From: Archaeoglobaceae archaeon
GTDB lineage: Archaea > Halobacteriota > Archaeoglobi > Archaeoglobales > Archaeoglobaceae
Assembly (NCBI GenBank): GCA_046537735.1
Contig: JBKHKH010000001.1
Coordinates: forward strand, 1 to 45,448
Reading direction: 5' to 3'
DNA length: 45,448 nt
Within the stretch, counting starts at the first letter, position 1. Each line of letters starts with the position of its first letter. This document shows, in pieces, positions 7,142 through 22,942 of this stretch. The translations under genes and the position numbers were made by a program. The notes below the pieces were generated by a model that saw nothing but the letters and a program-made list of their open reading frames with translations, made no database searches and was not told the origin of the DNA.

Positions 7142-7146
7142 TTTTA

Positions 7147-7902: not shown

Positions 7903-7926
7903 CCTGACAGGATTTACAACTCTAAG

Positions 7927-7934
7927 TATAAATA
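7927..7934 (-). promoter_or_regulatory. TATA-like box for the membrane-protein/actin-like operon
   Basis: Reverse strand TATTTATA sits about 25-30 nt upstream of the ATG at 7902, implying a leaderless or very short leader. A G7 run (7964-7970) lies further upstream. Confidence 0.3.
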
Positions 7935-8074
7935 ATTTCCTTAATTAATGAATACTATATTTTCCCCCCCAAAATTAACACAGAGGGCAAATATAACTGG
8001 AGATTCAGCCTATCCAGATAATAGAATAAAATAAAATCAAGATCAAACTGTTTTAAATTAAAAATTGGAACGTA

Positions 8075-9229
8075 TTATTCGTATCTTAAAGCCTCTATGG
8101 GTTCAAGGTTGCTGGCCTTCCATGCCGGGTATATCCCGCTGAGCACTGCCACCAGTATTCCAAAACCTACTCCCTCGATAATATATATTGCTGTTGTTGC
8201 TGTGAACAGGTATTCGACGCTCTCCAGAACTATCATGTTGATAGCGAAGCCACCCAGAATGCTTAATATACCTCCAATGGCACCACCCACCACTCCCAGG
8301 ATTAGAGCCTCCAACAGAAATATTCTGAGTATAACTTGTCTGTAAGCCCCTATAGCCCTCATAACACCAATTTCCTTGGTCCTCTCGATGGTGGACATCA
8401 GCATGATGTTCAATATGCTCACTCCAGCTACCAGCAAGGAGATCCCTGCTATGGCCATTAAAAAGGCGGTGATCTGTCGAAATGCCTCATTAATGCTATC
8501 CAGTATTTGTCTCATCTCAAAGACCTGAACTTTTTCCTCTCTTAGGTTGATCCTTCCCTCTACATGCTCCATGAATTCGTCCACGTCATTGATGCTCTCC
8601 ACCCTGACTATTATCTGGGTGTAACCTTCATCGAAGGTGTTATCGAAGTCGTCCATCTGGAGAAAGACCACGTTATTGGGGTTTATGTCATATCTGACCT
8701 CTTCTTTGAGTATGGTATTGACCCTGAAGTCTCTTCCTGCAACCGTTAGCTTACTCCCTTCTCTGAGGTTAAAATTGTCGGCGATGCTCCCTCCAACTAC
8801 ACAGCCACCTCTCTTCAGCTTCACATCTTCTCCCCCATCCTCGGCCTGAAAGAGGTCACCGATATTGTTCCCCTCAACGCCATAGATGGTAGAGTAAACC
8901 CTATCTGATTTATACTCGATAAGATCTCTGCTGCTTTTTATGGGGATGAAAGTCTCGATCCCCCGTAAGTTCCTTATCTTATCCACCACGTCTTTATCTA
9001 TCTCGGAATAGCCTTCACCTGTTGCGGGGAATATCTGCACCTGGGTGGCCAGGTCCTCAAAGTTCTGGGTCACAGATGCTCTCAGACTCTCCCCGAAGAT
9101 GCCTATGGATGCTATGGCCATGACACCAATAATTATGCCAATGATTGCTAAGGAACTCCTCACTTTGGTCCTAAGCAGATTTCTCCTGGCCAGTTCAAGG
9201 TACACCGGAATCACCGCCCGTGTTACCAT
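8075..9229 (-). CDS. MacB/FtsX-type ABC transporter permease
   Basis: N-terminal LELARRNLLRTKVRSSL + TM1, large extracytoplasmic domain of about 220 aa, and a C-terminal FtsX 3-TM bundle. Start trimmed to ATG 9227-9229; overlaps the ATPase gene by 35 nt. Confidence 0.87.
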   Translation of the reverse strand: MVTRAVIPVYLELARRNLLRTKVRSSLAIIGIIIGVMAIASIGIFGESLRASVTQNFEDLATQVQIFPATGEGYSEIDKDVVDKIRNLRGIETFIPIKSSRDLIEYKSDRVYSTIYGVEGNNIGDLFQAEDGGEDVKLKRGGCVVGGSIADNFNLREGSKLTVAGRDFRVNTILKEEVRYDINPNNVVFLQMDDFDNTFDEGYTQIIVRVESINDVDEFMEHVEGRINLREEKVQVFEMRQILDSINEAFRQITAFLMAIAGISLLVAGVSILNIMLMSTIERTKEIGVMRAIGAYRQVILRIFLLEALILGVVGGAIGGILSILGGFAINMIVLESVEYLFTATTAIYIIEGVGFGILVAVLSGIYPAWKASNLEPIEALRYE

Positions 9230-9893
9230 CGGCAATTTTCCCGTCAACCAATCTGATCGCCCTATGTGCGTAATTGGAGATGTAGGGGTCGTGGGTGACC
9301 AGGACCACTGTTAATCCCTGTTCCTTGTTCAGATCCTCGATCATCTTCATTACCACTTCTCCACTCCTGGTGTCCAGGTTTCCTGTGGGCTCATCGCACA
9401 GCAAAATGGAGGGGTTGTTGGATAATGCTCTCGCAATGGAAACTCTCTGCTGTTGACCACCGCTCATCTCAGTGGGTTTTCTGTTCAGCTCTTTCTCAAG
9501 GCCCACAAGCTTCAGTATGTCCTTGGCTTTCTCTCTTTCAGACCTGGATGCCTGGCGGAAGATCATGGGGAGCTCCACGTTCTCGAAAGCGGTTAAGGTG
9601 GGAATGAGGTTGTAGTGCTGGAAGACAAAGCCGATGGCGTCCCTCCTCAACCTGGTCAACTCGCTATCAGATAGGTCTGAAGTGTTGGTCCCGTTTATAA
9701 TCACTTTACCGCTGGTGGGCTTGTCAAGACATCCCAGCACATTGAGGAACGTGGATTTACCGCTGCCCGAAGGACCCATGACGGATAAGAACTCCCCTTC
9801 CGCTACTTTCAGGGAGATGCCATCAAGGGCTCTGACCTCCATGGGTCCACTCTGATAGATCTTGCTTACCTCTTGCAGCTCAATAATGTTCAT
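9195..9893 (-). CDS. ABC transporter ATP-binding protein (LolD/MacB family)
   Basis: Walker A GPSGSGKST, Q-loop FVFQHYNL, signature [15 protein letters not shown], Walker [14 protein letters not shown]-loop VTHD. Confidence 0.93.
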   Translation of the reverse strand: MNIIELQEVSKIYQSGPMEVRALDGISLKVAEGEFLSVMGPSGSGKSTFLNVLGCLDKPTSGKVIINGTNTSDLSDSELTRLRRDAIGFVFQHYNLIPTLTAFENVELPMIFRQASRSEREKAKDILKLVGLEKELNRKPTEMSGGQQQRVSIARALSNNPSILLCDEPTGNLDTRSGEVVMKMIEDLNKEQGLTVVLVTHDPYISNYAHRAIRLVDGKIADGNTGGDSGVP

Positions 9894-9894
9894 A

Positions 9895-11256
9895 CTACTT
9901 TCTCGATTTTATCCAGATAACTGCTACCAGAGCAAGAACAACTATGGCGATTACGGAGCCTATCATCATCAGGTTGCCACCTCCGGTCGCTTGACTGACC
10001 TTCTCTTCTGGAAGGGATATTTCCTGGCCAAGTTCCACCTTCTCTCCCAGCTCATTGTTCCATGAAACGGTCAGGAAGCCTTTGCTGGCGTTCATGTTGG
10101 AGAACTCGAACTCAAAGCTGTCGAAGTCCGAAACATCGATCGAGCCCAGATAGAAAGTCTTGATCTCGTTGCCCACCTGCATGGAGAGGAGGACATTGTA
10201 AACAGTGCTTCTTCCGCTGTTGCTCACGTCCCCGGAGATGGTGGTGCCGTCAACTTCTTTCTCTGTCCTGATGTTGCTGACGGAGACCGGTTTTTCTTCC
10301 AGAGCAAGGAATCTCACCTCTTTTGTCTCTGAGTACTGATTATTCAATTCGTCCTTATATGAGATGTCCATTTGGATGGTGTTCTCGCCTGTATTCCGGG
10401 GAGAGAACTGGAATGAAACTCTTGAACTCTTTTCGCTGCCCAAGGAGGCTATTTCCTTGGTTTTCTCTGAGTCTTTGAGGGAGGCTGTGACTTTAATGGA
10501 GTATATGGTGTCGTTCCTCAAGTTGGAGACGGTCACATCGAGGGGGACCACATCTCGGACCGGCACGGAGTTGTAGGGGATTGAAGCGTTGATTATTATC
10601 CCTTTTGTCTCACGGTATTCAGGGGTTACAGTTTTTACTACCTGATGGTAGTTCCTGCCATTGTAGTATGATATCTTGAAGGAAAGGTCTTCTCTGCTTT
10701 CTGGGGTATATCTGAAGGCTCCTTTCTGGGAGGAGGTTAAATCACCGAGATAGATTATCTTGGGGTCTGCGTCGAAGCGAGCCTCAACGGACACCTCCTT
10801 TATGCTGCCAATGGGATTGGTAAGATGGAAATTCAGGTTGTTGACCTCATTGAGCTTGAGTGGCGAGGTCAGGATTATGTCCGGCTGTTTGTTCTCTACA
10901 TTGACTAGGATAAGGCGCTTGACTGTTTCGTTTTCTGTCCGGACGTGCATCTCGATCGAATAGCTACCTGCTTGTTTTGCTTGGACGGTGAAGGGAAAAT
11001 CATAGGTGGAACCAGTAGGAATTGTGCCTACATCGCTAATCGAGTCAGGCTCCACATTGAGCTTGGTGTAAAGTACTATCTCTCTGACCTTAACATCATA
11101 TGCTCCCTTGTTGCTCAGGGTAACAGTGTAATCTACTTTATCTCCAGGTAAAATCGTATCAGGGGTGTGCTCAACGTCCACAGAAACTTTAGCTGACGCT
11201 ATGGGTAAAAACATTAGTAACAATAGGATCGATAAGCAAATCTTAACTTTATTCAT
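9895..11256 (-). CDS. Secreted, C-terminally anchored CARDB/COG1361-like repeat protein
   Basis: Signal peptide MNKVKICLSILLLLMFLPIASA, repeated beta-sandwich-like units (VDYTVTLSNKGAYDVKV, LDVTVSNLRNDTIYSIKV, ISGDVSNSGRSTVYNV) and a C-terminal TM + basic tail (IAIVVLALVAVIWIKSRK). Start set to ATG 11254-11256. The 608-aa track ORF extends spuriously through the Yip1 gene. Confidence 0.8.
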   Translation of the reverse strand: MNKVKICLSILLLLMFLPIASAKVSVDVEHTPDTILPGDKVDYTVTLSNKGAYDVKVREIVLYTKLNVEPDSISDVGTIPTGSTYDFPFTVQAKQAGSYSIEMHVRTENETVKRLILVNVENKQPDIILTSPLKLNEVNNLNFHLTNPIGSIKEVSVEARFDADPKIIYLGDLTSSQKGAFRYTPESREDLSFKISYYNGRNYHQVVKTVTPEYRETKGIIINASIPYNSVPVRDVVPLDVTVSNLRNDTIYSIKVTASLKDSEKTKEIASLGSEKSSRVSFQFSPRNTGENTIQMDISYKDELNNQYSETKEVRFLALEEKPVSVSNIRTEKEVDGTTISGDVSNSGRSTVYNVLLSMQVGNEIKTFYLGSIDVSDFDSFEFEFSNMNASKGFLTVSWNNELGEKVELGQEISLPEEKVSQATGGGNLMMIGSVIAIVVLALVAVIWIKSRK

Positions 11257-11303
11257 GGTTTTTTTGGATTTAAGTGGGTTTAAATATTTTATTAGTGGCA
11301 GAT

Positions 11304-11954
11304 TTAGATGTAGCCCCACAATGTATAGGCTGTATAACCGACGTAGGCCAGAAATGGGAGCAGGACAGTTATCGCAGCATTTCTGGTGGATAGCCCTCTG
11401 GCGTGCTTTAGTCCGAAGGTCCAGATGGTGAGGCTCCACACTCCGAATGCAAGGCTGACTATTATGCTGAAATAGACGAAATCTGCGGGAAGCATGGTGC
11501 TCATGATCTCGTTCACGAACTCTCCGCTCTGGATGTCCGTCATGCTCAGTTTTGGAACTCTTGCGCTGGCGATATACTGGGCACCAACAGCGGTAGTGAT
11601 GGCGGAAGCAAGTATGGAGGGCATAAAACCATATCCTGTGAACTCCAGGGTCCTCTTGAACAAGCCCTGTCCACCGAAATAAGATGAAATGACGTGCATT
11701 ATGGCCGAGACCGCCACCCAAACGATCATCATAACGGCAAAAGAACCTATGAACCCAATATATGCTCCGAGCCTGACGATTCCAGCGAAATCAGATGGAA
11801 AAGCTTCAGCCAGTTTGATGGTGATCAAGAACTGGTTAATGCCCCCGATTATGGACAGGACAAGGATTATCAATAGAGGCACCTTCAAACTGATCTCTTT
11901 CCCCTTTAATTCTTCAAAAAATCTACCGGGGTCGGATATTAGATTCAATGCCAT
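11304..11954 (-). CDS. Yip1-domain membrane protein
   Basis: NxxxDPGRFFEEL start followed by five hydrophobic helices, the archaeal Yip1/DUF1282-like pattern. Confidence 0.75.
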   Translation of the reverse strand: MALNLISDPGRFFEELKGKEISLKVPLLIILVLSIIGGINQFLITIKLAEAFPSDFAGIVRLGAYIGFIGSFAVMMIVWVAVSAIMHVISSYFGGQGLFKRTLEFTGYGFMPSILASAITTAVGAQYIASARVPKLSMTDIQSGEFVNEIMSTMLPADFVYFSIIVSLAFGVWSLTIWTFGLKHARGLSTRNAAITVLLPFLAYVGYTAYTLWGYI

Positions 11955-12022
11955 GCCCTCACTTGGCTGTGGAGTATAAAAATTTTTGTCATCTCCTGAT
12001 TAAGCTTAGCTACTTCCCTGAT

Positions 12023-14353
12023 TTAGCTCACGAACTCTTTGGTGACCTTCTCGATGTTCATTTTGGATATGAATCTCAGTCCGGGTAGAATGGACAGGGA
12101 GAGAATAACGAACACCATGATTATGGTTAAAACATATGTTCTGAAGTAGATGACGAAGGGGATCTGGAAAAGCTCGCTGGAGAATGCCAGCATGAACAGG
12201 TAGGCAGCGGCGTAGCTCAGGGGGACGCCCACTATTGTTCCGGTCACCCCTATCAACATATTCTCTATAAAGAGAGAAGACCCCATCTGTCTGGTGGTGT
12301 AGCCCAGCACCCTCAGGGTGGCCAGCTCTTTCCTTCTCTCCATAATATTGATGGAAGTGGCATTGAAGATGGCAGCGAAACCCAGACTGGCGCCAAAGGC
12401 CAGGGAGAAGAAGATAAATACGTAGGAGAACTCCATCATATCATTTATATACTCTATCACCACCGCCTTGGAGTTCACTTCCAGCACCCCGGGGAGGTCT
12501 TCCAGCTGTTCCTGGACTCTATCATGTTCTCCGGGTTTGGCTTTCACTATGATGGTGTTATAACCATCCGCACTCAGAACTTCTTGAAGGTGGTCAAGGG
12601 AGGCGTAGGCGTTTGGTGTTAGAGAGTGCGAGAAAGTACGGTGAACCTCACTCTTTTTCTTCCCTTTTTCGGTCACAAAGGTAAATTGCTGCCCTTCTAG
12701 CAGACTTAAATTCTGTGCAGTGCTTTGAGGAAGCAGTATCCCATCAGGGGGTGGCATGATCCGATTGCCGTTCAGATCATAGATGTTGTACAGATTCTGG
12801 TTACCCATACCTATGAGATTTATGGATTTGGAGTCATCACCCCTCTCTATTAGCATCCAGGTCATGATTAGGGGTTGAGCCTCCTCCACTCCCTGAATGG
12901 ATTTTACCTCCTTCAATGCGGTGTTATCCACGTAAGATGAGTATCTAACTTCGAAATCGTAGTTCATTACTTTATTGAATTGCAGGTCGAGGGTCTCCTC
13001 AATAGCATCCAGAAAGACCACAGAATTCATGATTAGCATTATGGCCGCCACCACGCTGAAAGCAGAATAAGCAGCCCTTTTTCTGTTCCTGAAGGTGTTT
13101 CTAAGGCTCAACCTGGTCAGTGTAGATAGTTTGATGAAGGAGAATAACTTATCTACTTCCAGACCTTTGGTCTGGGTCTCGAATGAACCTCTTAGCGACT
13201 GAACGATTTCCAGCTCAGCAGCTCTTTTGGCTATGAAAATGCCTGAAATAGCGGGTGCAAGAGTACCGATGAACAGGCCCAAAAGCAGTATCTCGATGTG
13301 TGGTCTGGCTACGTAATAGGGGACGTTGATAACATCCGTGTACTGCATGGTCATCACTATGGACAGAGTATAGCCTACAATTATACCTGCAACTGAGCCT
13401 ATGACTCCAATGAACAGGGAGTGCTTGAGGTAGTGGAACAGTATTGTATTTTTTCTGAATCCCAGAGCTCTGAGAACCCCGATGTTGTGTGTCTGCTCAT
13501 TTATAAGCCTGACAAGCAGGACATAAACTGCAAATATGGATATGAATAGAATAAATCCGGGTATCAGTATGGCCAGCTCTCTGAAACCCTCCAGATCGAG
13601 CTGTAGCGCCTGGTTGCTGGGCTGCTCTTCTCTGGTGTAGAAGTTCTTTATGCCGTAGGGTTCAAAGATCTGTCTAGCTCTATTGAGTATCTCCTCTCTC
13701 CGGCTCTCATCATAGACAGTAAAATGGACTTCATTGATTTCCCCCTGATGTCCAAAGCTCTCCAGGGTCTCATAGGGAACAAAAGCTATACCCAGGGTTC
13801 GAGGAGAAACAAAGAAGCTGCCCTCCTCAATTATCCAGATATACTCAGGACTGTATGCCAATCCGGTAATCTTTAGCTGCAACTTCTCCCCATCGATCCT
13901 GGGGGATATGGTCTCTCCTGCATGTATGTTGTGATAGTCCGCAAACTGTTTCAACAGGATGGCAGAACTGTAAGCATTCTTGGGGATGTAATCGCCCTCT
14001 ACATACAGCTGGTTAACTTTGGGCTGCTCTCCATCAGGAACGGATATGAGTATAAGGGTTGCCTGCTGGCCCCTGATCTCTAGGGTGGATTTGATGGACA
14101 ACCTGCCCTCTACTTCCTTGATCCCATCTAGCTTCTTCAAGTCTTTGAGGAGGGATGCGGGTGCGGGGTTGAACTTTATTCCTGCATCCTCGAAATCGGT
14201 TCTTTGATAAAAGTCGTTGTAGGTATCGGAGAGATTCAGATAGGAAATGTAGAAGGAGGTGAAGAGAGCAATTCCTAAAAATATTATGAAAGTAACTCCC
14301 AAGAACATCCCTTTTCGGGACTTAATGTCCCTCCACACCTTCCTATTAAGCAT
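12023..14353 (-). CDS. ABC transporter permease with two FtsX domains (fused double MacB-like permease)
   Basis: 776 aa. The unit of TM1 + large external domain + 3-TM FtsX bundle occurs twice (RALGFRK... and LRVLGYTTRQ... signature loops). Confidence 0.87.
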   Translation of the reverse strand: MLNRKVWRDIKSRKGMFLGVTFIIFLGIALFTSFYISYLNLSDTYNDFYQRTDFEDAGIKFNPAPASLLKDLKKLDGIKEVEGRLSIKSTLEIRGQQATLILISVPDGEQPKVNQLYVEGDYIPKNAYSSAILLKQFADYHNIHAGETISPRIDGEKLQLKITGLAYSPEYIWIIEEGSFFVSPRTLGIAFVPYETLESFGHQGEINEVHFTVYDESRREEILNRARQIFEPYGIKNFYTREEQPSNQALQLDLEGFRELAILIPGFILFISIFAVYVLLVRLINEQTHNIGVLRALGFRKNTILFHYLKHSLFIGVIGSVAGIIVGYTLSIVMTMQYTDVINVPYYVARPHIEILLLGLFIGTLAPAISGIFIAKRAAELEIVQSLRGSFETQTKGLEVDKLFSFIKLSTLTRLSLRNTFRNRKRAAYSAFSVVAAIMLIMNSVVFLDAIEETLDLQFNKVMNYDFEVRYSSYVDNTALKEVKSIQGVEEAQPLIMTWMLIERGDDSKSINLIGMGNQNLYNIYDLNGNRIMPPPDGILLPQSTAQNLSLLEGQQFTFVTEKGKKKSEVHRTFSHSLTPNAYASLDHLQEVLSADGYNTIIVKAKPGEHDRVQEQLEDLPGVLEVNSKAVVIEYINDMMEFSYVFIFFSLAFGASLGFAAIFNATSINIMERRKELATLRVLGYTTRQMGSSLFIENMLIGVTGTIVGVPLSYAAAYLFMLAFSSELFQIPFVIYFRTYVLTIIMVFVILSLSILPGLRFISKMNIEKVTKEFVS

Positions 14354-14381
14354 CAGATCACCAGAACACCGTTAAGGACTG

Positions 14382-15077
14382 CTACCAGTATAGTTTCTCG
14401 GGGTCTAAAGGTTGTTCATTCTCCACGATATTATCGATGGTGCCGTCCTTTAAGCGAACTATTCTATCCGCCATTTGGGCTATGGATGAGTTGTGAGTAA
14501 CCACGATGAAGGTTATCTTCTCCTTGTGGCACACTTCTCTCATGTACTTCAGCACCTTTTTCCCCGTCTCAAAATCCAGATTCCCCGTGGGCTCGTCTGC
14601 CAGTATGAGGGGCGGATTCTTTACCAGCGCCCTGGCGATGGAGACTCTCTGTTGTTCACCACCGGAGAGCTCGGAAGGAAAATGATCGGCCCTCTCCTTC
14701 AACCCCACCGTATCCAGAACCTCATCGGCATCTCTGGGCTTCTCTACCAGCTCGGAAGCCAGCTGAACGTTCTCTCTGGCGGTTAGGGTAGGTATCAGAT
14801 TGAAGAACTGGAACACGAAACCGATATTCTCTCTTCTGTGGTAGGTCAGCCCCTCTTCGTCAAGTTGGGTAACGTCCGTGCCTTTGAACACCACTTTACC
14901 CTTGTTGGGGACATCGATCCCTCCGATTATGTTGAGGAGAGTGGTCTTCCCCGAACCGCTCGGTCCCAGGACGACGATAAACTCCCCCTCATCTATCTCG
15001 AAGTAGACTTCTCTCAGGGCATGGACTTCTTCAGCTCCGATCCTGAAGATCTTCCACACATTCTCCAGAGTAAGCAT
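14382..15077 (-). CDS. ABC transporter ATP-binding protein (LolD/MacB family)
   Basis: Walker [10 protein letters not shown], signature [15 protein letters not shown], Walker [14 protein letters not shown]-loop VTHN. Start trimmed to ATG 15075-15077 (MLTLENVWK), 4 nt after the upstream stop. Confidence 0.93.
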
Positions 15078-15081
15078 GCTG

Positions 15082-16566
15082 CTACTTCTTCCTCCAATTA
15101 TATTTATAGCCCACAAATGCAATCACTATCAGCACTATCAGAACTGCGGCGATCTGTCCGAGGTAGCTCTTTTCTGCTATGTACTGGGAGAAGCTCCTGG
15201 TGACCGTGTGTTGTTCAAATGTGGTGTCCATGTAGTTGATATCTACTTCGATATGGTGGTCTCCGGAGGAGCCTGCCGTGAGATCGAAGGATGCTGTGGC
15301 AGAATCCCCACTCTCCAGACTGCCGATGAAGTAGCTACTCCTTCCCTTGAAATCTGGCGGGAGCTTTAAGGCCAGACTGACCGCTTTGGCATCCTGGTTA
15401 CCGCTGTTCTCTACCTGAAGAGATAGCTTGTAGTTCTCGCCTGCCGTGGGCGTGTCCGGCGAAGTAAAGACTCCTGCTATATCCAGGCTGATCCTGCCCG
15501 GTGAGCTGACGAACACCGGGAAGTCTTTAGTAGAAGAATACGTCTTTCCAGACTCGTCCTCATAGCTCATGTCCAGGATGAATGTATGGTCTCCAATGGA
15601 GGTCTTGTTTTGGGCTTTTAAGTTGAATTTAGCCGTTTTGGTACTGTCTCTGTTCACAGTCCCCAGGAATTTGGTACCTTCTCCTTCAAAATTTTGAGGG
15701 ATGTTCAAGGAAAGCCTGGTGTTCTCTGCATTGCTTGTGCCTGAGTTCTCGATTCCCACATTCAGTGTAAATTCATCTTCGGGGAATACTCTGTCGGGAG
15801 TGGTGGCCACTTCTGAGATAATCAATTGAGGAGTTCCTTTCACCTTCAAGGGAATGGGAATGGTCTCTGATTGAGGCTCTCCAAACTCATTTCTGTAGCT
15901 CAATTGGAGGTCCAGTTGATATACCCCCGTGCTAACGGATTTGTCTGCGGTGAGGGAAAAGGCAAGCTCTTTCTGTTTATTGCTCTCCCAGCTGTCGAAA
16001 ACAACCTTTCCCAGATTGCTAACAATTTTTTCTGGTGTGCTCATGGAGATGCTGACGTCCTTGGCTCTTCCACCCCCATTCAAGACCTTGATGCTGTAAT
16101 CCTCTGTTCCGGAAGGTGCGATGGTCAACTCTTTAGAGACACTGAACTGGGGCTCGTCAATCACTTTTAAGGCTATTACCCTGTTGATGCTTGCCTTGTA
16201 GAGGTATTCACCGTAATCGTAATCTATTCTGGCCTTTATTTCGTATATACCTGCTTTTTCCGCTCTCATCTTCAATTGGGCGGAGCTCGACCCCGTGGCC
16301 AGATCGCCCAGGGAAAGAATGATGCTTGAGACTTCTTTCCCTCCACTGAGAATAGATAGATCATCTTCTTTCTCGTAAAGAAATAGTTTAACGTTTTTGG
16401 CATTGCCACCAGCGTTCTGCAGGTCCACACTCAGTATAAAGTCTCCTGTACCCGGATTTTCCGGCACAGTATGATGATCTACAGTTATAATCGGCTGACC
16501 TGACACGCCAGCAGCTAAAAAACTCAAGATAAGTATCGAAAACAAAAATTTCCACCAAATCCTCAT
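15082..16566 (-). CDS. Secreted, C-terminally anchored CARDB/COG1361-like repeat protein
   Basis: Signal peptide MRIWWKFLFSILILSFLAAGVSG. Four repeats with the VxxxNxGxxxAxxV pattern (SVDLQNAGGNAKNV, IKVLNGGGRAKDV, VGIENSGTSNAENT, LQVENSGNQDAKAV). C-terminal TM + KYNWRKK. Confidence 0.82.
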   Translation of the reverse strand: MRIWWKFLFSILILSFLAAGVSGQPIITVDHHTVPENPGTGDFILSVDLQNAGGNAKNVKLFLYEKEDDLSILSGGKEVSSIILSLGDLATGSSSAQLKMRAEKAGIYEIKARIDYDYGEYLYKASINRVIALKVIDEPQFSVSKELTIAPSGTEDYSIKVLNGGGRAKDVSISMSTPEKIVSNLGKVVFDSWESNKQKELAFSLTADKSVSTGVYQLDLQLSYRNEFGEPQSETIPIPLKVKGTPQLIISEVATTPDRVFPEDEFTLNVGIENSGTSNAENTRLSLNIPQNFEGEGTKFLGTVNRDSTKTAKFNLKAQNKTSIGDHTFILDMSYEDESGKTYSSTKDFPVFVSSPGRISLDIAGVFTSPDTPTAGENYKLSLQVENSGNQDAKAVSLALKLPPDFKGRSSYFIGSLESGDSATASFDLTAGSSGDHHIEVDINYMDTTFEQHTVTRSFSQYIAEKSYLGQIAAVLIVLIVIAFVGYKYNWRKK

Positions 16567-17102
16567 TTATCCAACCTCCTGCATTTAACAAAATCTTTGG
16601 CAAGCTTCCTGTAATTCTCAATATCACCGATATCGTAGAACATTGAATATAAGGCAAGCCCATCGAACATGGCCATTACTGCAGTTGCCGTTACAGCCGG
16701 GTCCTTGATGCCCTCTTTTTCAAATAAAGGGATCACAATTTTGTTCAATTCCTCATAAAACCCTCTGAAAAGCTCAAAATCCCCAGAATGGAGCACTTTA
16801 CCGCTGATGTAGGCAAAGAAGTTCATTACATGGGGTAAATTGATAAAGTTGTCTACTGTAACATCGATCAAGTCGTCAACGCTATGTATCTTTTTAATGG
16901 ACTCTGTAAACAGCTTATTGAACGTGTAGTATGCCACTTCTTTCTCCAGATTATCTTTGCTCTTAAAATGGTAGAAAATAAGCCCTTTTGATACTCCTAC
17001 GGCTTCAGCCACCTCATCAACGGTTACCATTTGAGGCGGTTTGGATGTATAGAGATCGAGAGCGTTCTCCAGTATCCTGGTTTTAACTGACTGGTCAGTC
17101 AT
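16563..17102 (-). CDS. TetR/AcrR family transcriptional regulator
   Basis: N-terminal HTH TVDEVAEAVGVSKGLIFYHFKSKDNL and an all-helical C-terminal domain. ATG at 17100-17102 preferred over the upstream in-frame TTG. The stop overlaps the next start (ATGA). Confidence 0.87.
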   Translation of the reverse strand: MTDQSVKTRILENALDLYTSKPPQMVTVDEVAEAVGVSKGLIFYHFKSKDNLEKEVAYYTFNKLFTESIKKIHSVDDLIDVTVDNFINLPHVMNFFAYISGKVLHSGDFELFRGFYEELNKIVIPLFEKEGIKDPAVTATAVMAMFDGLALYSMFYDIGDIENYRKLAKDFVKCRRLDK

Positions 17103-17123
17103 ATTGACTAACTGGTCAGTCAA
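17083..17123 (-). promoter_or_regulatory. Tandem pair of 20-bp imperfect palindromes overlapping the tetR start (candidate operators)
   Basis: Reverse strand reads TTGACTGACCAGTTAGTCAAT ATGACTGACCAGTCAGTTAAA, a direct repeat of about 21 nt. Copy 1 is TTGACTgACc/aGTtAGTCAA (8 of 10 symmetric). Copy 2 contains ACTGAC-CA-GTCAGT. Confidence 0.4.
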
Positions 17124-17182
17124 AGTATGTAAGGCTTGTGGATGCTCCAGTCCACAATTACAACGAATCTGTGTTCATTCTT

Positions 17183-18085
17183 CTAATGTTCTAAAAGACC
17201 TTTAACAGCGCCCTGTTTGATTTCGGGGTCAAAGAAGAATATTATCAGGTTGACCACCAGTAGAACCACAAAGCCTGCTAAACCAGTTACTCCGATAAGC
17301 AATTCATTCCCTCCTTTTAACACCATTATGGATATACCGTAGGTGGCGTTGACTGTTCCGTGGATGATGGCGGCGGCTATAACTGATTTGCCTTTTATTC
17401 TTACGTAACTGAATACGGGAGCCAGCAGAACGGCCCACCCGATCATCATAAACACACCTATAACTGGGTACTGGGGGTAGTTGTGGCCCTGGAGTATGAG
17501 GGGTGCGTGCCACACCCCCCAGATCACACCAATGACCATGGATGCTCTCCAGAAGTCCATATGATCAAGCTCTCTCTGGAGGAATCCTCTCCATCCCAGC
17601 TCTTCACCAAATCCAGCCACAGCATTGATGGTGATACCGGCGACAAGACCCTGGATTAATGCCAGCCAGATGGGGTGGACAGGAGACTCTTCTATCTGCT
17701 TTTTGATCAATTCCATCTGCTCTGGTGTGAGAACGGACTGGTATCTTTCCAGCATACCCTCCAGTCCAGGAGAGTAGGTCACATCAGGGAATAACAGGCT
17801 GACCCCCAGGGCGGCAAAGGCTATAACTGGCGGCAAGAGCCAGGCAACCAGCCACCACCGATTTACTTTGAAGGAAATGCCTAACGGTCTTCTAACTGCT
17901 TCACCATAGTATTTTTGAACAGCAATGGCACACACCATGGGAACGAACATGTAGGCGGTGGCCAGCACCATGGCGTTAAGGGTGTTCCATTCGCCCCCTG
18001 AAGCAACAAAAACAGCTACCATCAACCAGTCGATGAGGAAGATCAGTCCTATAAACAATCCGATCTTCTTAAGCCGGCTGCTCAT
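17183..18085 (-). CDS. CPBP (CAAX/Abi) family intramembrane glutamic protease
   Basis: Motifs FGEELGWRGF (EExxxR), IWGVWHAP (FxxxH-like) and IIHGTVNA (HxxxN) in a multi-TM protein. Overlaps the MMPL gene stop by 17 nt. Confidence 0.85.
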   Translation of the reverse strand: MSSRLKKIGLFIGLIFLIDWLMVAVFVASGGEWNTLNAMVLATAYMFVPMVCAIAVQKYYGEAVRRPLGISFKVNRWWLVAWLLPPVIAFAALGVSLLFPDVTYSPGLEGMLERYQSVLTPEQMELIKKQIEESPVHPIWLALIQGLVAGITINAVAGFGEELGWRGFLQRELDHMDFWRASMVIGVIWGVWHAPLILQGHNYPQYPVIGVFMMIGWAVLLAPVFSYVRIKGKSVIAAAIIHGTVNATYGISIMVLKGGNELLIGVTGLAGFVVLLVVNLIIFFFDPEIKQGAVKGLLEH

Positions 18086-20291
18086 TCAGACCACGATTTT
18101 CTTTTCTGAACCTCTCTGTGAATATGAGGAAGGCGGGCACCAGAATTAGAGCGGCAAGAAGACAGAAAATTATGGTGGCTACACTTACCAGCCCAAAATC
18201 CCTCATGATGGGGAAGGGAGATACTGTCATCGCTGCGAAGCCTCCGGCCATGGTGAGACCTGAAGTCATAATAGCTTTTCCTATGTTCTGAATAGTGATA
18301 TCTACCGACTCTTCTGGCGACCTCCCCAGCCGCCTCTCCTCGAAGTAGCGCTCCATTACGTGAATGGAGAAATCTATTCCCAGTCCCACGGTCAAAGAGT
18401 TCAGGCTGGCAGAGATCAAGGTCCTGGGAACTCCAGTGAGATACATCAAAGCACCCACTAGGATTATGACCGTTGTGATGGGTACCAGGGGGACGACGGC
18501 ACTTCTCAAGCTCCTATAAACCACCAGCAGGAGGAGGGTGACCAGGACGAAGCTGGCTATGGTCATGTTATTCTGGCCGTTGATGATCAAGTCGGCCACG
18601 AACATCTTGAGGACCACATCACCGGTCAAATAGAACCCCTCTTCCAGTCCGAAGAAGTTGATATCCTCTTTGATCCTGTCATAAAGGTCTTTGAACTCGA
18701 TCCAGTCCATGGAGGAAACGGAGAAATAGATGGCTATGGTGTTCCCGCTGAGGTATCTCTGCATCTGGTCCGAAGGCATGGCATCCAGCAGATAGAACAA
18801 TTTGGTTTGACTATCCGGCATTTCACCGTCGTTGTACGATTTAACCAGGGTGTTGAGGCTCTCATAACCCACTACCTGCGGCTCAACGGATGTGATATAC
18901 TGTGAAAGAGAATCTATTCTTTTAAGATAATCCAGATTCAGTTTATCGGTTTCAATAACAGCAATGATCTCCTCAGAGCTGCCGATTACACTCTCCAGCT
19001 CGTTCATCTTTCTGATGGCAGGCAGGTCCTGGGGGATATATTCATAGAAATCTGTCTGGAGGTCGAGGTTGGAGTAACCGTAGTAACCGGTAGTCACCAT
19101 CAACAAGGCAATCAACAGAACTGTTTTGGGCCTTTCAGTGGGTATTCTGGCGATCTCCTTGAGCACAATGCCCAGGATGTCCCTTCCTTCTTCCGTCTTT
19201 ACAGTATCTCTTTTACCTCTCTCCATCAGTATGAGGACAGCAGGAAGGAACGTAAGGCTTAGAAGAAAGGCTATAACCAGCCCGATAGCTGATAAAAAAC
19301 CGAACCAGCTCAGAGCCGGAACACCGGAGAACACCATGGATAGAAATCCTATAACTGTGGTGATCATCGCCAGGCTGAGAGCCACCCCCACGCTTTTGAT
19401 GGAGTTGACCACGGCATTGACACTGGTGAAACCCTTGCGCATTTCCTCTTCAAATCTGGCCTGGAACTGAGCAGCGTACTCAATGCTTAGACCTATAAGG
19501 ATAGGAAAGAAGCCGTTAGTAACATCCGTTATCGGTATCCCAAAAATGGGCATTAATCCGTAGACCATAACGGTAGTAAAGATAGATATCACCAGGGGGA
19601 GCATCAGGGACCTCTTTCTGGCCACCACTCCTCTGAAGACTACCACCAGGATCAAGACCATTAAAATAATGGCAGCAGCTCCCATCATCATCATACTCTG
19701 TCCAATGGCCTGGTTGACCTGATACCTGACCAGAGGGTTCCCTGTAGCCTCTGTGACCACTCCAACCGGTTTAGGGATAGTTTCTATTTTTCGATCGATC
19801 TCCTGGGCTATCTCATCGTATTTGGATTCAGAAGCTGTAATCTCAATCCTTATGAGAGCAAAACTATTCTTGGGGACATAGAAGCTGGCATAATTATTTA
19901 CGTAGCTCTGAAGCGTGGCTCTGTCCTGAGGCAAATATCCAAAGTTTTTTACTGCAGAGCTGGCCGCAGAATTGGTCTCTCCAACCCCCTGGATGCTGGA
20001 GACAGAGTCTTCAAGCTCCAGCATATACTGGAAAACTTCGTAAGTTACCACATTGTCCCCTTTGACAAAAATGTAGGCTGCGCCCACAGAGGCACCAAAG
20101 TCTTTGGAGTAGAGTTTGTATTGGGTGAACTCTTTATGCTCCTCAGAAAAGTAGGTCTCAAAGCCCTGGTCCATCTTGACCTGCTGGCTGAAATGTATGC
20201 CAGCTATAAACAACAAGATTACGGCAACGATCACTGCCAGAGGGGCTCTGGTCGCCAATTTGGAGAAAAACTCAAAGATTGCTTTTACCAT
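18069..20291 (-). CDS. MMPL/RND-superfamily exporter (COG1033-like)
   Basis: 740 aa. The unit of one TM + large external loop + 5-TM bundle occurs twice, the typical RND/MMPL architecture. Confidence 0.87.
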   Translation of the reverse strand: MVKAIFEFFSKLATRAPLAVIVAVILLFIAGIHFSQQVKMDQGFETYFSEEHKEFTQYKLYSKDFGASVGAAYIFVKGDNVVTYEVFQYMLELEDSVSSIQGVGETNSAASSAVKNFGYLPQDRATLQSYVNNYASFYVPKNSFALIRIEITASESKYDEIAQEIDRKIETIPKPVGVVTEATGNPLVRYQVNQAIGQSMMMMGAAAIILMVLILVVVFRGVVARKRSLMLPLVISIFTTVMVYGLMPIFGIPITDVTNGFFPILIGLSIEYAAQFQARFEEEMRKGFTSVNAVVNSIKSVGVALSLAMITTVIGFLSMVFSGVPALSWFGFLSAIGLVIAFLLSLTFLPAVLILMERGKRDTVKTEEGRDILGIVLKEIARIPTERPKTVLLIALLMVTTGYYGYSNLDLQTDFYEYIPQDLPAIRKMNELESVIGSSEEIIAVIETDKLNLDYLKRIDSLSQYITSVEPQVVGYESLNTLVKSYNDGEMPDSQTKLFYLLDAMPSDQMQRYLSGNTIAIYFSVSSMDWIEFKDLYDRIKEDINFFGLEEGFYLTGDVVLKMFVADLIINGQNNMTIASFVLVTLLLLVVYRSLRSAVVPLVPITTVIILVGALMYLTGVPRTLISASLNSLTVGLGIDFSIHVMERYFEERRLGRSPEESVDITIQNIGKAIMTSGLTMAGGFAAMTVSPFPIMRDFGLVSVATIIFCLLAALILVPAFLIFTERFRKENRGLNEQPA

Positions 20292-20294
20292 AGC

Positions 20295-22175
20295 TTACTG
20301 TTTGGGCTTAAATTTGGTGTATGCTCCGTAAACTACAGCAGCCGCCACGACCAGCAGGCCGACGATAAGCATGGGAGGAATAGCTGTTGATTCAACAACT
20401 TCTACCGGCATCTTCTCCGGATCGCTGATGACCCATTCATCGGAGAGGTCCTTGTACTTCACTTCCAGGTTGAGCGCATACAGCTTCAGAGTAGCATCAC
20501 TATCCGCTTTCAGATTGAAGGTCACATTAGTAGATTCCCCAGGATCCAGGCTTCCCACATAGGCAGTATCATCTGTGGTGGAGAATGGGTCGACTACTGT
20601 TATACGGGTTGTAGCATCCCTAACCGTGAAATCCCCGGCATTCTTTACTGCAACCGTTACCGTTTCTTCACCACCGGCGGGCACCTGTCCCAACCCATGG
20701 ACTTCGAACTGCATCTTGGGCTGGACAGTGACCCCTACATCGACCTTTTCCGTCACTTCTTTGTCGTTGATGTTGTAGGTGAACTCCACTTTACCGGGGT
20801 ATTCACCTGATTGAGCGTTGCTCAAAGCATTTATCTTGAATCTGGTCTTAAAAACCTCCTCCACATCCCCTACGAAAGTCTCGCTAACAGTGGCTGAGAG
20901 AGGTGGTTTAACGCTGATCGCAGCTTTCAGATCATCGACCGGCTGAGTGGGAGAAATATAAGCAATGAAATCCCCTTCGCTTCCGGCATAAATGGAGGAT
21001 GAAGTGTTCATCACCCGGAACTCAGGACCTTCCCTGAGCTTTACCCCGAAGGCCACACTGGAAGTTTGCTGGGTTTCGCTGTACTCATCCAGATAAACCC
21101 CCCTTATCTGGAACGGATAATAACCTGCCTCTTCCGTAGATATATCAACAGTAAAGGTGACGTTGACACTTTGACCCGGTCTGAGGTCCCCTACGTAGTA
21201 GGAACCCTGGGAGAGGGTGGAGGATACCTCCGAAGGAACTTTGAGTTCAGGTAGTGACTGAGTGCTGACTCCGGTATCCCCTGCACCTGCCTGCGCCTGA
21301 AGGAGCTCCATCAACGGCTGCAGCTCTTCAAAGGAGGGGAGCTTCTGGAATGACGATAGGGCAGTGAAACCTGAAGGAGTGGACATGATCACGTAGAGGT
21401 TGGAGCCCACTTTCTCTCCAACATTCTTCACCTCAAGAGTAAGGTTACCCTTCCCTCCTGCCACCATATTTGTGGTGTGGACGTCAACAACCTTGAGCTT
21501 AACGTCATCCTCATCTACTACCACTTTTAAGGTTATAGTTTGCTCTTTGGGATCGAAATCGTAATCTATCCAGCTGAACCACAGCTGGGGGAGGTTTGTC
21601 TCGTTTATGACTGTCTTCTTGGATGGAACATATGTACCCAAAGTGGAATTATATTCCAGCTCGCTCTGTATCTCTTTGGTGGTGGTAGAGGTGTCAGGCA
21701 TTTCGGTTCTTGACCTCAACAGTATATCGTCAAGGATCTCGTAGTCCAATTTTAGCTTCAATTTGTATTCTCCAGCCTCTACGTTCTCGTTGACCCTGAT
21801 TTTCAGGGGGAGCTGGGCGGGTTCCATGGAGGGGAGGGCCGGATATTTCTGGACGGGTGTGAGTACCTTTATTCCGTCGGTCCCCTCACATTCAACAGTC
21901 ACGTTGTAGGCGGTGGTGAGCATGTCGGTTCTGTTCTTGAAGAAATTGTAGGTCTCGTAGTTGTAGTAGCTGATCCTCTCTATCTTGGCGTTGTTCTGGA
22001 GCATGACGTTGAGCTGGGTCTCCTCACCTCTGTTAACGTGATTATCTCCATATATGTATGCCGTGAAGTAGGGCTCTTCTTTATAGCTGAATGAGGCTGA
22101 TGCCTGGCTGCAAAGGGCTAGCAAAATAATTATCACAAGTAATAGTTTAAACACACTTGACTTTATATGGGTCAT
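20295..22175 (-). CDS. Secreted, C-terminally anchored COG1361/CARDB-like repeat protein (largest paralog)
   Basis: Signal peptide ...VFKLLLVIIILLALCSQASA, repeat cores (LNVMLQNNAKIERI, LTLEVKNVGEKVGSNL, VTVAVKNAGDFTVRDA) and a C-terminal TM + KFKPKQ. ATG 22173-22175 preceded by GGTGG (the track starts at GTG 22184). 3-nt gap to the MMPL gene. Confidence 0.77.
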   Translation of the reverse strand: MTHIKSSVFKLLLVIIILLALCSQASASFSYKEEPYFTAYIYGDNHVNRGEETQLNVMLQNNAKIERISYYNYETYNFFKNRTDMLTTAYNVTVECEGTDGIKVLTPVQKYPALPSMEPAQLPLKIRVNENVEAGEYKLKLKLDYEILDDILLRSRTEMPDTSTTTKEIQSELEYNSTLGTYVPSKKTVINETNLPQLWFSWIDYDFDPKEQTITLKVVVDEDDVKLKVVDVHTTNMVAGGKGNLTLEVKNVGEKVGSNLYVIMSTPSGFTALSSFQKLPSFEELQPLMELLQAQAGAGDTGVSTQSLPELKVPSEVSSTLSQGSYYVGDLRPGQSVNVTFTVDISTEEAGYYPFQIRGVYLDEYSETQQTSSVAFGVKLREGPEFRVMNTSSSIYAGSEGDFIAYISPTQPVDDLKAAISVKPPLSATVSETFVGDVEEVFKTRFKINALSNAQSGEYPGKVEFTYNINDKEVTEKVDVGVTVQPKMQFEVHGLGQVPAGGEETVTVAVKNAGDFTVRDATTRITVVDPFSTTDDTAYVGSLDPGESTNVTFNLKADSDATLKLYALNLEVKYKDLSDEWVISDPEKMPVEVVESTAIPPMLIVGLLVVAAAVVYGAYTKFKPKQ

Positions 22176-22210
22176 GACTACCACCGTGTAGTAGCAAAGG
22201 CTACGACAAT

Positions 22211-22240: not shown

Positions 22241-22942
22241 GTGGACAAATTGGTGGAGGCTTTAAAAGACTTTGGACTTAGTGATTACGAGTCAAAGGTA
22301 CTTCTCACTCTACTGGCAAAGGGTGAGCTCTCAGCAGCAGAGATCGCCAGCTACAGTGGTGTGCCCAGAACTTCGGTGTATGAGGTAGTGAAGTCACTGA
22401 CCTCTAAAGGAGTGGTAGAAGAAGCGGGTGGAAAGCCCATGAAGTTCAAATCCATCCGGAGCGAGGATTTGATGGCCCTTTTTTCCAGGAGGTTGAAGGA
22501 AAACGTCGATTTCCTCAAAAAGGAATTACCCACTATTGAGGAAGGAGAGAAGAGAGAAGAAGTTGTCAAATTATATACAGGGGATGTAGCTTATAACGTG
22601 CTCAGAGAGTGTGTGGAGAAATGCCAAAAAGAGATCATTGTAGCATCAGCCAGCCTCGACCAGCGAATAATTGAAGTAATCGAAGGCGCTAACTGTAAAG
22701 TAGTGGTGATAGCTCCCAATGTAGGCGACTTCCAGGATGAGAATATTTCTGAAAGGCTTCAAATGGACGTAGAACTCACCCAAGTGGGTGTCTACCACGG
22801 GATGTTCCTCCTGGACGAGGAGAAGGTCGCCATTTACCTCAAACAGGGAGACAATTTGAGACTGATGATGGGCTCAGGAAGTTTTGCAGAGTTCTACAAG
22901 ATGTTCCTCCACTCATTCATCAGGCAAAAGGTCAAAGAATAG
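22241..22942 (+). CDS. TrmB family transcriptional regulator
   Basis: N-terminal winged HTH LKDFGLSDYESKVLLTLLAKGELSAAEIASYSGVPRTSVYEVVKSL typical of TrmB, with a C-terminal effector-like domain. Confidence 0.85.
   Translation: MDKLVEALKDFGLSDYESKVLLTLLAKGELSAAEIASYSGVPRTSVYEVVKSLTSKGVVEEAGGKPMKFKSIRSEDLMALFSRRLKENVDFLKKELPTIEEGEKREEVVKLYTGDVAYNVLRECVEKCQKEIIVASASLDQRIIEVIEGANCKVVVIAPNVGDFQDENISERLQMDVELTQVGVYHGMFLLDEEKVAIYLKQGDNLRLMMGSGSFAEFYKMFLHSFIRQKVKE

Follow-up and report, generated by a model that had tools for sequence, protein, structure and literature searches.

A locus with three exporters and three anchored fibre proteins

Why should three exporters that are encoded side by side in an archaeon each be accompanied by a surface-anchored repeat protein of its own? 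The question is raised by a stretch of DNA from an Archaeoglobaceae archaeon (contig JBKHKH010000001.1; 45,448 nt, in the following called the window), whose minus strand holds a cluster of eleven open reading frames (ORFs) at positions 8075-22184. Three of the encoded proteins, here named fibres A, B, and C, belong to the COG1361/CARDB-like families, and the gene of each one directly precedes the genes of a pump. Searching the window with hidden Markov models (HMMs) of the fibre families found three family ORFs in all, each adjoining an exporter. As is shown below, this pairing is far above chance, and we consider it probable that every fibre functions as a partner dedicated to the adjoining pump.

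A sequence-only reading of the window had proposed the eleven minus-strand genes, and all of them are present where it had placed them. Its junctions, which in transcription order are 3, -17, 80, -4, 4, 28, 68, 47, 1, and -35 nt (negative values are overlaps), were reproduced with ATG starts at positions 17102 (TetR), 15077 (first ATPase), 11256 (fibre C), and 9229 (MacB-like permease). Searches of Pfam and NCBIfam likewise bore out its family assignments, namely three COG1361-like proteins, an MMPL/RND pump, a CPBP protease, a TetR regulator, ATPases, a permease with two FtsX domains, a Yip1 protein, and a MacB-like permease. The 608-aa ORF at 9895-11721, which an automatic ORF list contains, was rejected as an over-extended version of fibre C.

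Fibre A (629 aa, 20295..22184, minus strand like all other genes of the cluster; Pfam NPCBM_assoc, CARDB, and DUF11) is associated with an RND exporter of the HAE3/MMPL family (740 aa, 18069..20291), whose start codon lies 3 nt past the fibre A stop codon. The pump is a full-length HAE3 member: TIGR00921 matches residues 16-723 with 577.3 bits at a cut-off of 351.9, and Pfam MMPL (1.8e-47) is found in two stretches. Fibre B (494 aa, 15082..16566; Pfam CARDB 5.9e-20 in two matched stretches) possesses a signal peptide, CARDB repeats, and a C-terminal transmembrane (TM) helix. It is followed by an ABC ATPase of the LolD/DevA/MacB nucleotide-binding type (14382..15077; Pfam ABC_tran 9.7e-37) and by a fused double-FtsX permease of 776 aa, which resembles the YbbP/ADOP-like type VII ABC transporters (12023..14353; Pfam FtsX 3.8e-35 in two stretches). 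The ectodomains of this permease were not called by Pfam, and its NCBIfam matches to lolCE, ADOP, and YbbP are weak and all under cut-off. Fibre C (453 aa, 9895..11256; Pfam CARDB 8.9e-11) is the partner of a MacB-like ABC system. The ATPase of this module (9195..9893; Pfam ABC_tran 2.7e-36) starts 1 nt past the fibre C stop codon, and the permease (8075..9229; 384 aa when started at the ATG 9229) combines an extracytoplasmic MacB_PCD domain (3.8e-22) with FtsX (7.4e-19). Together with the separate ATPase, this is the make-up of a type VII ABC transporter; in NCBIfam the permease resembles MacB and lolCE. For both ATPases, the closest NCBIfam similarities are LolD, DevA, FtsE, and MacB. The claim that each fibre precedes a mechanistically different exporter is correct for the architectures, of which there are three, but not for the mechanisms, of which there are only two, as a single RND pump driven by protons stands beside two ABC systems of type VII (FtsX fold).

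Pairing of fibre and RND pump across archaea

For module A, an alignment of four MMPL proteins served as the query of a pump-anchored search in archaeal and bacterial assemblies (one genome per species), which gave 78 HAE3 loci. A member of the fibre family was located directly upstream of the MMPL gene and on the same strand in 19 of 20 evaluable Archaeoglobi-like loci and in 19 of 20 evaluable loci from Halobacteria; two further archaeal loci also have a fibre gene directly upstream. In 25 of the 38 pairs, the two genes are separated by -4 to +7 nt, a spacing of stop and start codons that suggests translational coupling. The 39 proteins that were aligned (fibre A of the window and 38 upstream proteins) all match NPCBM_assoc, and 38 of them match CARDB. 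A full-length alignment was obtained for fibre A with 19 haloarchaeal partners; its identity to the haloarchaeal fibres is about 25%. No upstream fibre was found in Thermoplasmata (0/9), in MGII/Poseidoniales-like loci (0/11), in Hadarchaeota (0/1), or in an Alphaproteobacterium (0/1), and in these groups the HMM detected no family member within 5 kb of the HAE3 gene.

The core association of fibre and RND pump has been published before. In Haloferax volcanii, HVO_A0466 and HVO_A0467 form an operon with a one-base overlap (PMC11349517, 2024); the pair is located on pHV4, with a divergent regulator gene upstream of it. HVO_A0466, which is secreted and glycosylated, is predicted by AlphaFold to be a fibre of four immunoglobulin (Ig) folds with a C-terminal TM helix; HVO_A0467 (827 aa) is induced 44-fold upon iron starvation, and siderophore export has been suggested as its function (PMC11349517). 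Across 21 haloarchaeal genomes, homologues of this "RND-T-associated protein" adjoin RND permeases and the phylogenies match, and the authors proposed an interaction in the pseudoperiplasm (PMC11349517). An HMM built from Archaeoglobi fibre A proteins only matches HVO_A0466 at 3.5e-38, and the pump HMM matches HVO_A0467 at 7e-161; the A-MMPL pair of the window thus belongs to the same family. Fibre A shares with it the homology to HVO_A0466, the co-oriented upstream position, and the make-up of a secreted four-domain fibre with a TM helix. In both loci, the fibre gene is directly upstream, stop and start codons nearly overlap, and the regulator is divergent; in the window, however, this regulator is of the TrmB and not of the TetR family, a gene for a CPBP protease is appended, and two fibre paralogues serving ABC transporters lie alongside. 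These ABC-linked paralogues are outside the coverage of the earlier study, which was confined to Halobacteria. The window is therefore a further case of a pairing that is functionally uncharacterised. The sequence-only reading, which had called the system uncharacterised, was right about the function but not about the pairing, since the RND association was published (PMC11349517) and loci with ABC transporters and "S-layer proteins" were noted in 2015 (PMC5898192).

The TrmB-family regulator (22241..22942, plus strand; Pfam TrmB 1.8e-21) is divergent from the A-MMPL module. The same divergent arrangement of a TrmB homologue and a fibre-MMPL pair occurs in A. profundus, in Geoglobus, and in about 20 other loci from Archaeoglobi. 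The CPBP (Rce1-like) intramembrane protease (17183..18085; Pfam Rce1-like 2.7e-15), whose gene overlaps the MMPL gene by 17 nt, is a local addition outside the conserved A module; among the fetched loci, it is shared only with the closest relative (locus L010).

Several loci of this search deserve mention on their own account. Locus L022 from an Archaeoglobaceae contig contains a second A-family fibre (7756-9843, minus strand; HMM 5e-94). It follows the first fibre-MMPL pair at a distance of 2.6 kb, so near the end of the locus that its own neighbour is cut off. The HAE3 pumps without a fibre in Thermoplasmata and MGII (L033-L061, L075-L081) mostly comprise about 850-900 aa, compared with about 740 aa for the Archaeoglobi pumps; as partnered haloarchaeal pumps also have about 840 aa, a greater pump length is no simple substitute for a fibre. 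Two long ORFs in L070 and L071 were checked for a fusion of fibre and MMPL (a Rosetta stone), and none was seen. The MMPL ORF of L070 (3804-7505, 1233 aa) continues in frame into an ABC ATPase domain, possibly as an artefact of the single-cell assembly; the 1387-aa MMPL ORF of L071 (3126-7289) is extended at the N-terminus by about 620 aa, for which Pfam gave no match.

Fibres paired with ABC transporters

For module B, the gene order TetR, fibre B, ATPase, and double-FtsX permease is kept in A. sulfaticallidus and A. neptunius. The TetR-family regulator (16563..17123, with the ATG at 17102; Pfam TetR_N 1.2e-11) is the first gene of the module and overlaps the fibre B gene by 4 nt; a TetR gene is directly upstream of the fibre gene in L010, L087, L088, and L089 as well. 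In L087 and L088, orthologues of the double-FtsX permease with 776-779 aa are found at the same position. Locus L089, from an aerobic archaeon, shows two variants: at 6429-10185 (plus strand) the order is TetR, fibre, FtsX permease, and ATPase, and at 12042-15176 (minus strand) an MMPL that is split in two genes is followed by a 417-aa CARDB fibre, which is thus downstream of the pump instead of upstream.

The start region of the TetR gene contains two perfect inverted repeats, at 17136-17157 (TTGTGGA-N8-TCCACAA) and at about 17104-17123 (TTGACTGA-N4-TCAGTCAA). The 7-bp repeat at 17136-17157 was considered as a TetR operator; it is conserved neither in L010 nor in L087 and L088, and this role is doubtful because the repeat is not kept in the closest relative.

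For module C, the order fibre, ATPase, and MacB-like permease is kept in A. veneficus and in several metagenomes, in neighbourhoods that are otherwise unrelated, and orthologues of fibre C are without exception encoded immediately before the ATPase and/or the MacB-like permease. A second search, which was anchored on the MacB-like permease and performed in metagenomes, showed this same order for the nearest relatives. In five further loci, the fibre gene lies between ATPase and permease, and in two of them a Yip1 gene follows the permease; three of the five were traced to Bathyarchaeota and Methanomethylicia. Altogether, three gene orders were seen for the ABC-linked fibres, which recur among Archaeoglobi, Bathyarchaeota, and Methanomethylicia. 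No fibre gene was found in about 70 more distant, probably bacterial, MacB-like units. As a control, we listed the families encoded next to these fibre-less units: 8 of the 44 neighbours were HlyD adaptors, and CARDB was not among the 25 families listed. Fibres and HlyD adaptors therefore show a complementary distribution in the same gene slot. A Pfam scan of the proteins of the cluster revealed no HlyD-type adaptor.

A recurrent fourth component of C-type modules is a Yip1-family membrane protein, which in the window is encoded at 11304..11954 (Pfam Yip1 3.4e-25). It also matches the NCBIfam model YknW_fam (3.3e-9), with 36.6 bits and hence below the cut-off of 110. Yip1 genes adjoin fibre/ABC units in L001, L092 (with a 4-nt overlap), L098, and L113; in L106, which is incomplete and has no visible fibre gene, Yip1 adjoins the permease. 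The C-type module of A. veneficus is adjoined by both SpoIIM and Yip1 genes. The window, too, encodes a membrane protein of the SpoIIM/COG1300 family (44814-45392, plus strand; Pfam 1e-31), which is related to the SpoIIM genes of A. veneficus (phmmer 1e-12) and lies 33 kb away from module C.

Modules rather than one super-cluster

The eleven genes had been taken for a single 14-kb super-cluster. This view was not upheld: the cluster consists of three independently conserved, separately regulated modules side by side, which occur separately elsewhere, and their juxtaposition is lineage-specific. It was seen only in the closest relative, whose MMPL is 91% identical; there, a 12-kb locus (L010) covers the genes from TrmB through fibre B, so that the juxtaposition extends at least that far, and a C homologue is on the same 195-kb contig. 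AT-rich, TATA-like elements, which were spotted by eye only, precede the A, Yip1, and C genes and make three or four transcription units likely. A scan for sigma-70 promoters gave 16 sites where 18.7 were expected, i.e. no enrichment with a model that is not applicable to archaea; a terminator scan gave 15 terminator-like sites versus 12.5 expected and no enrichment either.

What is conserved is the pairing itself. The adjacency of COG1361-like genes and exporters, which had been set beforehand as a test of a functional relationship, holds for all three fibre types and in several archaeal phyla, and dozens of unrelated genomes contain the pairing. That the linkage persists while gene order, phylum, and pump class change speaks strongly for a functional tie. 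These data bear on the view that the fibres are ordinary surface proteins, i.e. S-layer-associated proteins or adhesins without any link to the pumps, which became neighbours by chance or through a shared regulation of envelope stress. It agrees with the database name "COG1361 S-layer family protein", with the presence of an S-layer glycoprotein (7ptp, rank 33) in the class of tandem-Ig structures found by Foldseek, and with the restriction of the three-module juxtaposition to this lineage. However, it would have to explain the adjacency in 38 of 40 evaluable MMPL loci of Archaeoglobi and Halobacteria, the occurrence of the ABC type in several phyla and gene orders, a fibre-pump spacing consistent with translational coupling, and the published co-phylogeny in haloarchaea (PMC11349517). 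In addition, the family-HMM matches in the fetched loci adjoin a visible pump gene, except for the extra copy near the end of L022, whose neighbour is cut off. The presence of TetR and TrmB regulators on the modules fits inducible export and not structural S-layer genes, and the operon context argues against a role of the fibres in the lattice. For these reasons, we regard independent surface proteins as a highly improbable explanation.

Architecture and conservation of the fibres

The sequence-only reading had described the repeat proteins as having a signal peptide, beta-sandwich repeats, and one C-terminal TM helix, and the AlphaFold2 models of A and C agree with it, each with four domains. 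The model of fibre A (mean confidence pLDDT 81) consists of a signal helix, four beta-sandwich domains (D1 to D4), and a C-terminal TM helix (604-624), in addition, residues 138-223 form a long beta-hairpin, and an insert at 300-317 is disordered. In the model of fibre C (pLDDT 87), a signal helix and four beta-sandwich domains are followed by a flexible linker and the C-terminal TM helix. The pairwise identity of A, B, and C is 21-22% in multi-domain alignments, and fibre B is found by the A-family HMM at 3.5e-43 and by the C-family HMM at 6.5e-17. The three fibres are old, distant paralogues rather than recent copies.

The tails of A, B, and C consist of the TM helix and basic residues, and none contains the PGF of a PGF-CTERM motif. 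Tails of the PGF-CTERM type recognized by archaeosortases (…RIPGFELSLALLSMFVLLWRRK) occur in the fibre A orthologues of L011 (3145-4923), L012 (3199-4968), L013 (2807-4561), and Geoglobus (P0046). As some Archaeoglobi orthologues have PGF-CTERM and the fibres of the window a plain TM helix, the tether can be either lipid or helix, and the same is true for bacterial adaptors. The fibres encoded between ATPase and permease in L097 (3-1472), L098 (1834-3363), and L113 (2078-3970), of which only L098 was traced to Bathyarchaeota, lack a C-terminal TM helix; the end of these proteins is an amphipathic tail that is short and conserved (…FWVWIRRVLGLGP, …LTIWDLIRILLGMRP, …IWRFILSLLGLGK). Many RND-associated fibres of haloarchaea (L062-L086) have a glycine-rich motif, G-G-(F/L)-P-(L/I), directly before the TM helix (…SGGGLPFGLIVG…, …GSGFPLGLIGVG…), which differs from PGF.

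Column conservation in the fibre A family climbs toward the membrane, from 0.36 in D1 and 0.38 in D2 to 0.50 in D3 and 0.59 in D4; in fibre B, the last domain before the TM helix is the most conserved one (0.72-0.80). A profile search in 1.84 billion representative proteins yielded 505 clusters with E <= 1e-30, whose proteins contain between 3 and 9 matched stretches. The best-matching stretch usually corresponds to profile positions of about 310-611 (D3-D4-TM) and is C-terminal in proteins of 475-1540 aa. This placement indicates that the core of the family is a membrane-proximal module, to which a distal part of variable length is added.

The location of the conserved part is relevant for the idea that the fibre is cargo or a capturing device, i.e. 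that it is itself a surface protein which is extracted from the membrane and released or passed on in the manner of LolCDE substrates, or acts as an extracellular receptor that captures a metal, a siderophore, or a peptide for the pump or takes such a ligand over from it. The PGF-CTERM signals of some A orthologues would make these proteins lipid-anchored like Lol substrates, the closest NCBIfam similarities of ATPase and permease include LolD and LolCE, and the strong induction of HVO_A0467 by iron starvation together with its proposed siderophore export (PMC11349517) also fits this idea. On the other hand, conservation peaks next to the membrane and not at the distal tip, where a site for ligand capture is expected. 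Sec signal peptides are present in the fibres, those of the window carry ordinary TM anchors, and RND pumps are not known to transport proteins. Moreover, each diverged paralogue is paired with one diverged pump, and stop and start codons overlap, an arrangement more typical of the subunits of a complex than of cargo. On this evidence, a cargo or capture role is unlikely.

The fibres do not have the fold of an adaptor of the membrane fusion protein (MFP) type; the models of A and C are all-beta tandem-Ig structures. A, B, and C do not match the HlyD/lipoyl models of Pfam (HlyD_D23, HlyD_3, Biotin_lipoyl_2), although HlyD models do pick up the adaptors beside bacterial-type MacB-like relatives. 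A Foldseek comparison of the A and C models with the PDB revealed no adaptor fold among the best 50 matches; the matches, all with low TM-scores, comprise HYDIN/ASH proteins, MG domains of alpha-2-macroglobulin, integrin legs, and the above-mentioned S-layer glycoprotein of Haloferax. Searching PDB sequences with the family profile gave matches at chance level only, the best one being arrestin at E 0.04. The MmpS family of Pfam does not match A, B, or C, which have 453-629 aa and are C-terminally anchored, and Pfam identified no enzymatic domain in the fibres.

Comparison with bacterial partner systems

The closest parallel in gene order to module C is the YknWXYZ system of Bacillus. There, the adaptor YknX binds the ectodomain of YknZ, and the Yip1 protein YknW modulates the assembly, in a bacterium with a single membrane (PMC4887032). 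Both systems have the same four-gene order, i.e. Yip1, an extracytoplasmic anchored protein, the ATPase, and a MacB_PCD plus FtsX permease, and both belong to a single-membrane envelope. In contrast, the protein in the adaptor slot of the window is a C-terminally anchored tandem-Ig fibre, whereas YknX is a protein of the HlyD family with an N-terminal anchor. Module C is consequently not a YknWXYZ system in the strict sense, as a CARDB fibre replaces the MFP and the Yip1 protein scores below the YknW_fam cut-off. The analogy of the fibre with an adaptor in this slot is nevertheless strengthened by the parallel to yknWXYZ and by the complementary distribution of fibres and HlyD proteins.

All four type VII ABC systems of E. 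coli have an extracytoplasmic partner, namely EnvC, LolA, MacA, and TesA (PMC12646458). MacA-MacB-TolC, FtsEX-EnvC, LolCDE-LolA, and YbbAP-TesA share with the ABC modules of the window the MacB_PCD plus FtsX permease, the ATPase of the LolD/MacB type, and a partner gene that adjoins the transporter; YbbP, in addition, has the fused double-FtsX permease. They differ in that the fold of the fibre is unrelated to MacA, EnvC, LolA, and TesA, that the system of the window has no outer membrane or TolC, and that its permeases are far under the equivalog cut-offs.

The parallel to FtsEX raises the question of whether the ABC modules transport anything through the fibre at all. ATP-driven movements of the permease ectodomain might instead switch the conformation or activity of the fibre, as FtsEX does with EnvC or PcsB, and the output might be a remodelling of the S-layer or envelope, the formation of vesicles, or signalling at the cell surface. 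Type VII ABC systems are defined by passing a conformational change to extracytoplasmic partners, as in FtsEX-EnvC, LolCDE-LolA, and YbbAP-TesA (PMC12646458). Yip1 and SpoIIM-like genes are recurrent near C-type modules, and Makarova et al. placed loci with Yip1, SpoIIM, SalXY, and an "S-layer protein" under membrane remodelling and vesicles (PMC5898192). An argument against such a switch is the equally tight pairing of the fibre superfamily with a proton-driven RND pump, which has no known role in switching effectors. The fibres carry no enzymatic domain, and both the TetR-type regulation and the LolD/MacB-like ATPases point to efflux. We therefore judge mechanotransmission to be an improbable function of the ABC modules.

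The loci just mentioned are the second antecedent of the present case. Makarova et al. described Yip1/SpoIIM(arCOG01996)/SalXY/"S-layer protein" loci in Archaeoglobi, Methanococci, and Thermococci in 2014 and 2015 (PMC4158269, PMC5898192), noted in 2015 that ABC transporters of the SalXY type with "S-layer proteins" are located near Yip1/SpoIIM cassettes (PMC5898192), and interpreted the loci as systems of defence or of membrane remodelling and vesicle formation (PMC5898192, PMC4158269). The fibre was not singled out there as the partner of a pump, and module C of the window has no adjacent SpoIIM gene. A reading of the cluster as anti-phage defence was rejected, as no PADLOC defence model matched: eight of nine proteins gave no match, and the permease showed only the generic similarity to the TM part of LolE. 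In the literature searched, we found nothing that unites RND- and ABC-linked fibres in one partner superfamily, nor a comparison with yknWXYZ.

For the RND module, the nearest bacterial counterpart is MmpS-MmpL. MmpS proteins consist of a single domain, comprise about 140 aa, and are anchored N-terminally. MmpS5 is the small beta-sandwich adaptor of MmpL5 (PMC12346298). As in module A, the gene of a membrane-anchored beta-sandwich accessory protein lies immediately upstream of that of an MMPL-family RND pump, and some mycobacterial MmpS-MmpL systems export siderophores; the archaeal fibres, however, comprise at least four domains and carry their anchor at the C-terminus. YknX, the partners of type VII transporters, and MmpS5 are functional, not structural precedents.

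Proposed role of the fibres

The claim that the fibres are exporter-specific, envelope-spanning partners has to be divided. That they are dedicated partners is well supported by adjacency; that they span the envelope as an adaptor or conduit is a tentative suggestion, which we consider possible and somewhat doubtful. For the locus as a whole, we propose three separate export modules, in each of which the fibre is an extracytoplasmic accessory subunit dedicated to its pump. Together with the following mechanism of docking and reach, this proposal seems to us about evenly balanced between right and wrong. The fibre would be exported by Sec and be tethered beside the pump via its C-terminal helix or, in some orthologues, via the lipid anchor of PGF-CTERM. 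The conserved D3-D4 part might then dock on the extracytoplasmic domain of the pump, i.e. the porter domains of MMPL or MacB_PCD, while the variable distal domains would project across the pseudoperiplasm toward the S-layer. One possibility is that these domains lead hydrophobic or amphiphilic substrates (lipids, siderophores, antimicrobial peptides) off the membrane; the other is that they keep the pump in register with the outer layer. In this manner, the fibre would fill the functional place of the HlyD-type adaptors (MacA, YknX) and of MmpS by means of an unrelated fold.

The distribution of the RND-linked fibres is compatible with a role directed at the S-layer. Thermoplasmatales have no paracrystalline S-layer (PMC12448462), and the HAE3 pumps of Thermoplasmata have no fibre partner; this correspondence concerns one or two independent lineages. 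A broader generalization would be that one ancient superfamily of Ig fibres is the general archaeal counterpart of periplasmic adaptors, with paralogues specialised for RND pumps or, together with Yip1, for ABC pumps, which dock via D3-D4-TM, oligomerise around the pump as a conduit or strut of variable length to the S-layer, and are lost where there is no S-layer. In that case, archaea would have evolved a "tripartite-like" efflux with a fold that is unrelated to the MFPs. We regard this generalization as rather unlikely in its entirety.

A number of points weigh against the proposed role. The deletion of HVO_A0467 (HVO_A0466 was not deleted) had almost no phenotype (PMC11349517). The HAE3 pumps of Thermoplasmata, MGII, and Hadarchaeota have no partner, hence the fibre is not obligatory for this pump family. 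For contigs of "uncultured archaeon" origin, the group counts given above depend on taxon labels which were assigned here from MMPL similarity and the descriptions of the sequence records. The conservation of fibre C, for which the sample is narrower, is nearly flat (0.61-0.69) and does not rise toward the membrane. According to the models, the fold is a generic tandem Ig, which is shared with S-layer glycoproteins and adhesins, and neither a channel nor a lipid-binding groove was seen in these models. Finally, the physical contact between fibre and pump, its stoichiometry, the reach to the S-layer, and the substrates are features that we infer.

The locus bears on how archaeal pumps move hydrophobic or toxic substrates past the membrane, the pseudoperiplasm, and the S-layer. 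To our knowledge, no archaeal adaptor has been characterised so far. The same superfamily of fibres is wired to two mechanistically unrelated classes of pumps in several archaeal phyla, and the scattered labels "COG1361 S-layer family protein" and "RND-T-associated protein" become one concrete hypothesis, which is testable genetically in Haloferax volcanii. Even if the partner hypothesis is wrong, the fibres are the best handle on the role of the archaeal HAE3 and MacB-like systems.

Further genes of the window

Immediately downstream of the cluster, a DUF7139 membrane protein is encoded at 7147-7902 (minus strand), whose gene overlaps that of a volactin by 4 nt. Volactin is known from work on the cell shape of Haloferax. 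The protein of the window (6089-7150, minus strand; Pfam Volactin 2e-125) is a full-length member of this family of archaeal actins in an Archaeoglobi-like genome. Unrelated to the cluster is a predicted beta-propeller protein of 637 aa at 27401-29314 (minus strand), which matches Pfam Beta_propel (PF09826) at 4e-111.

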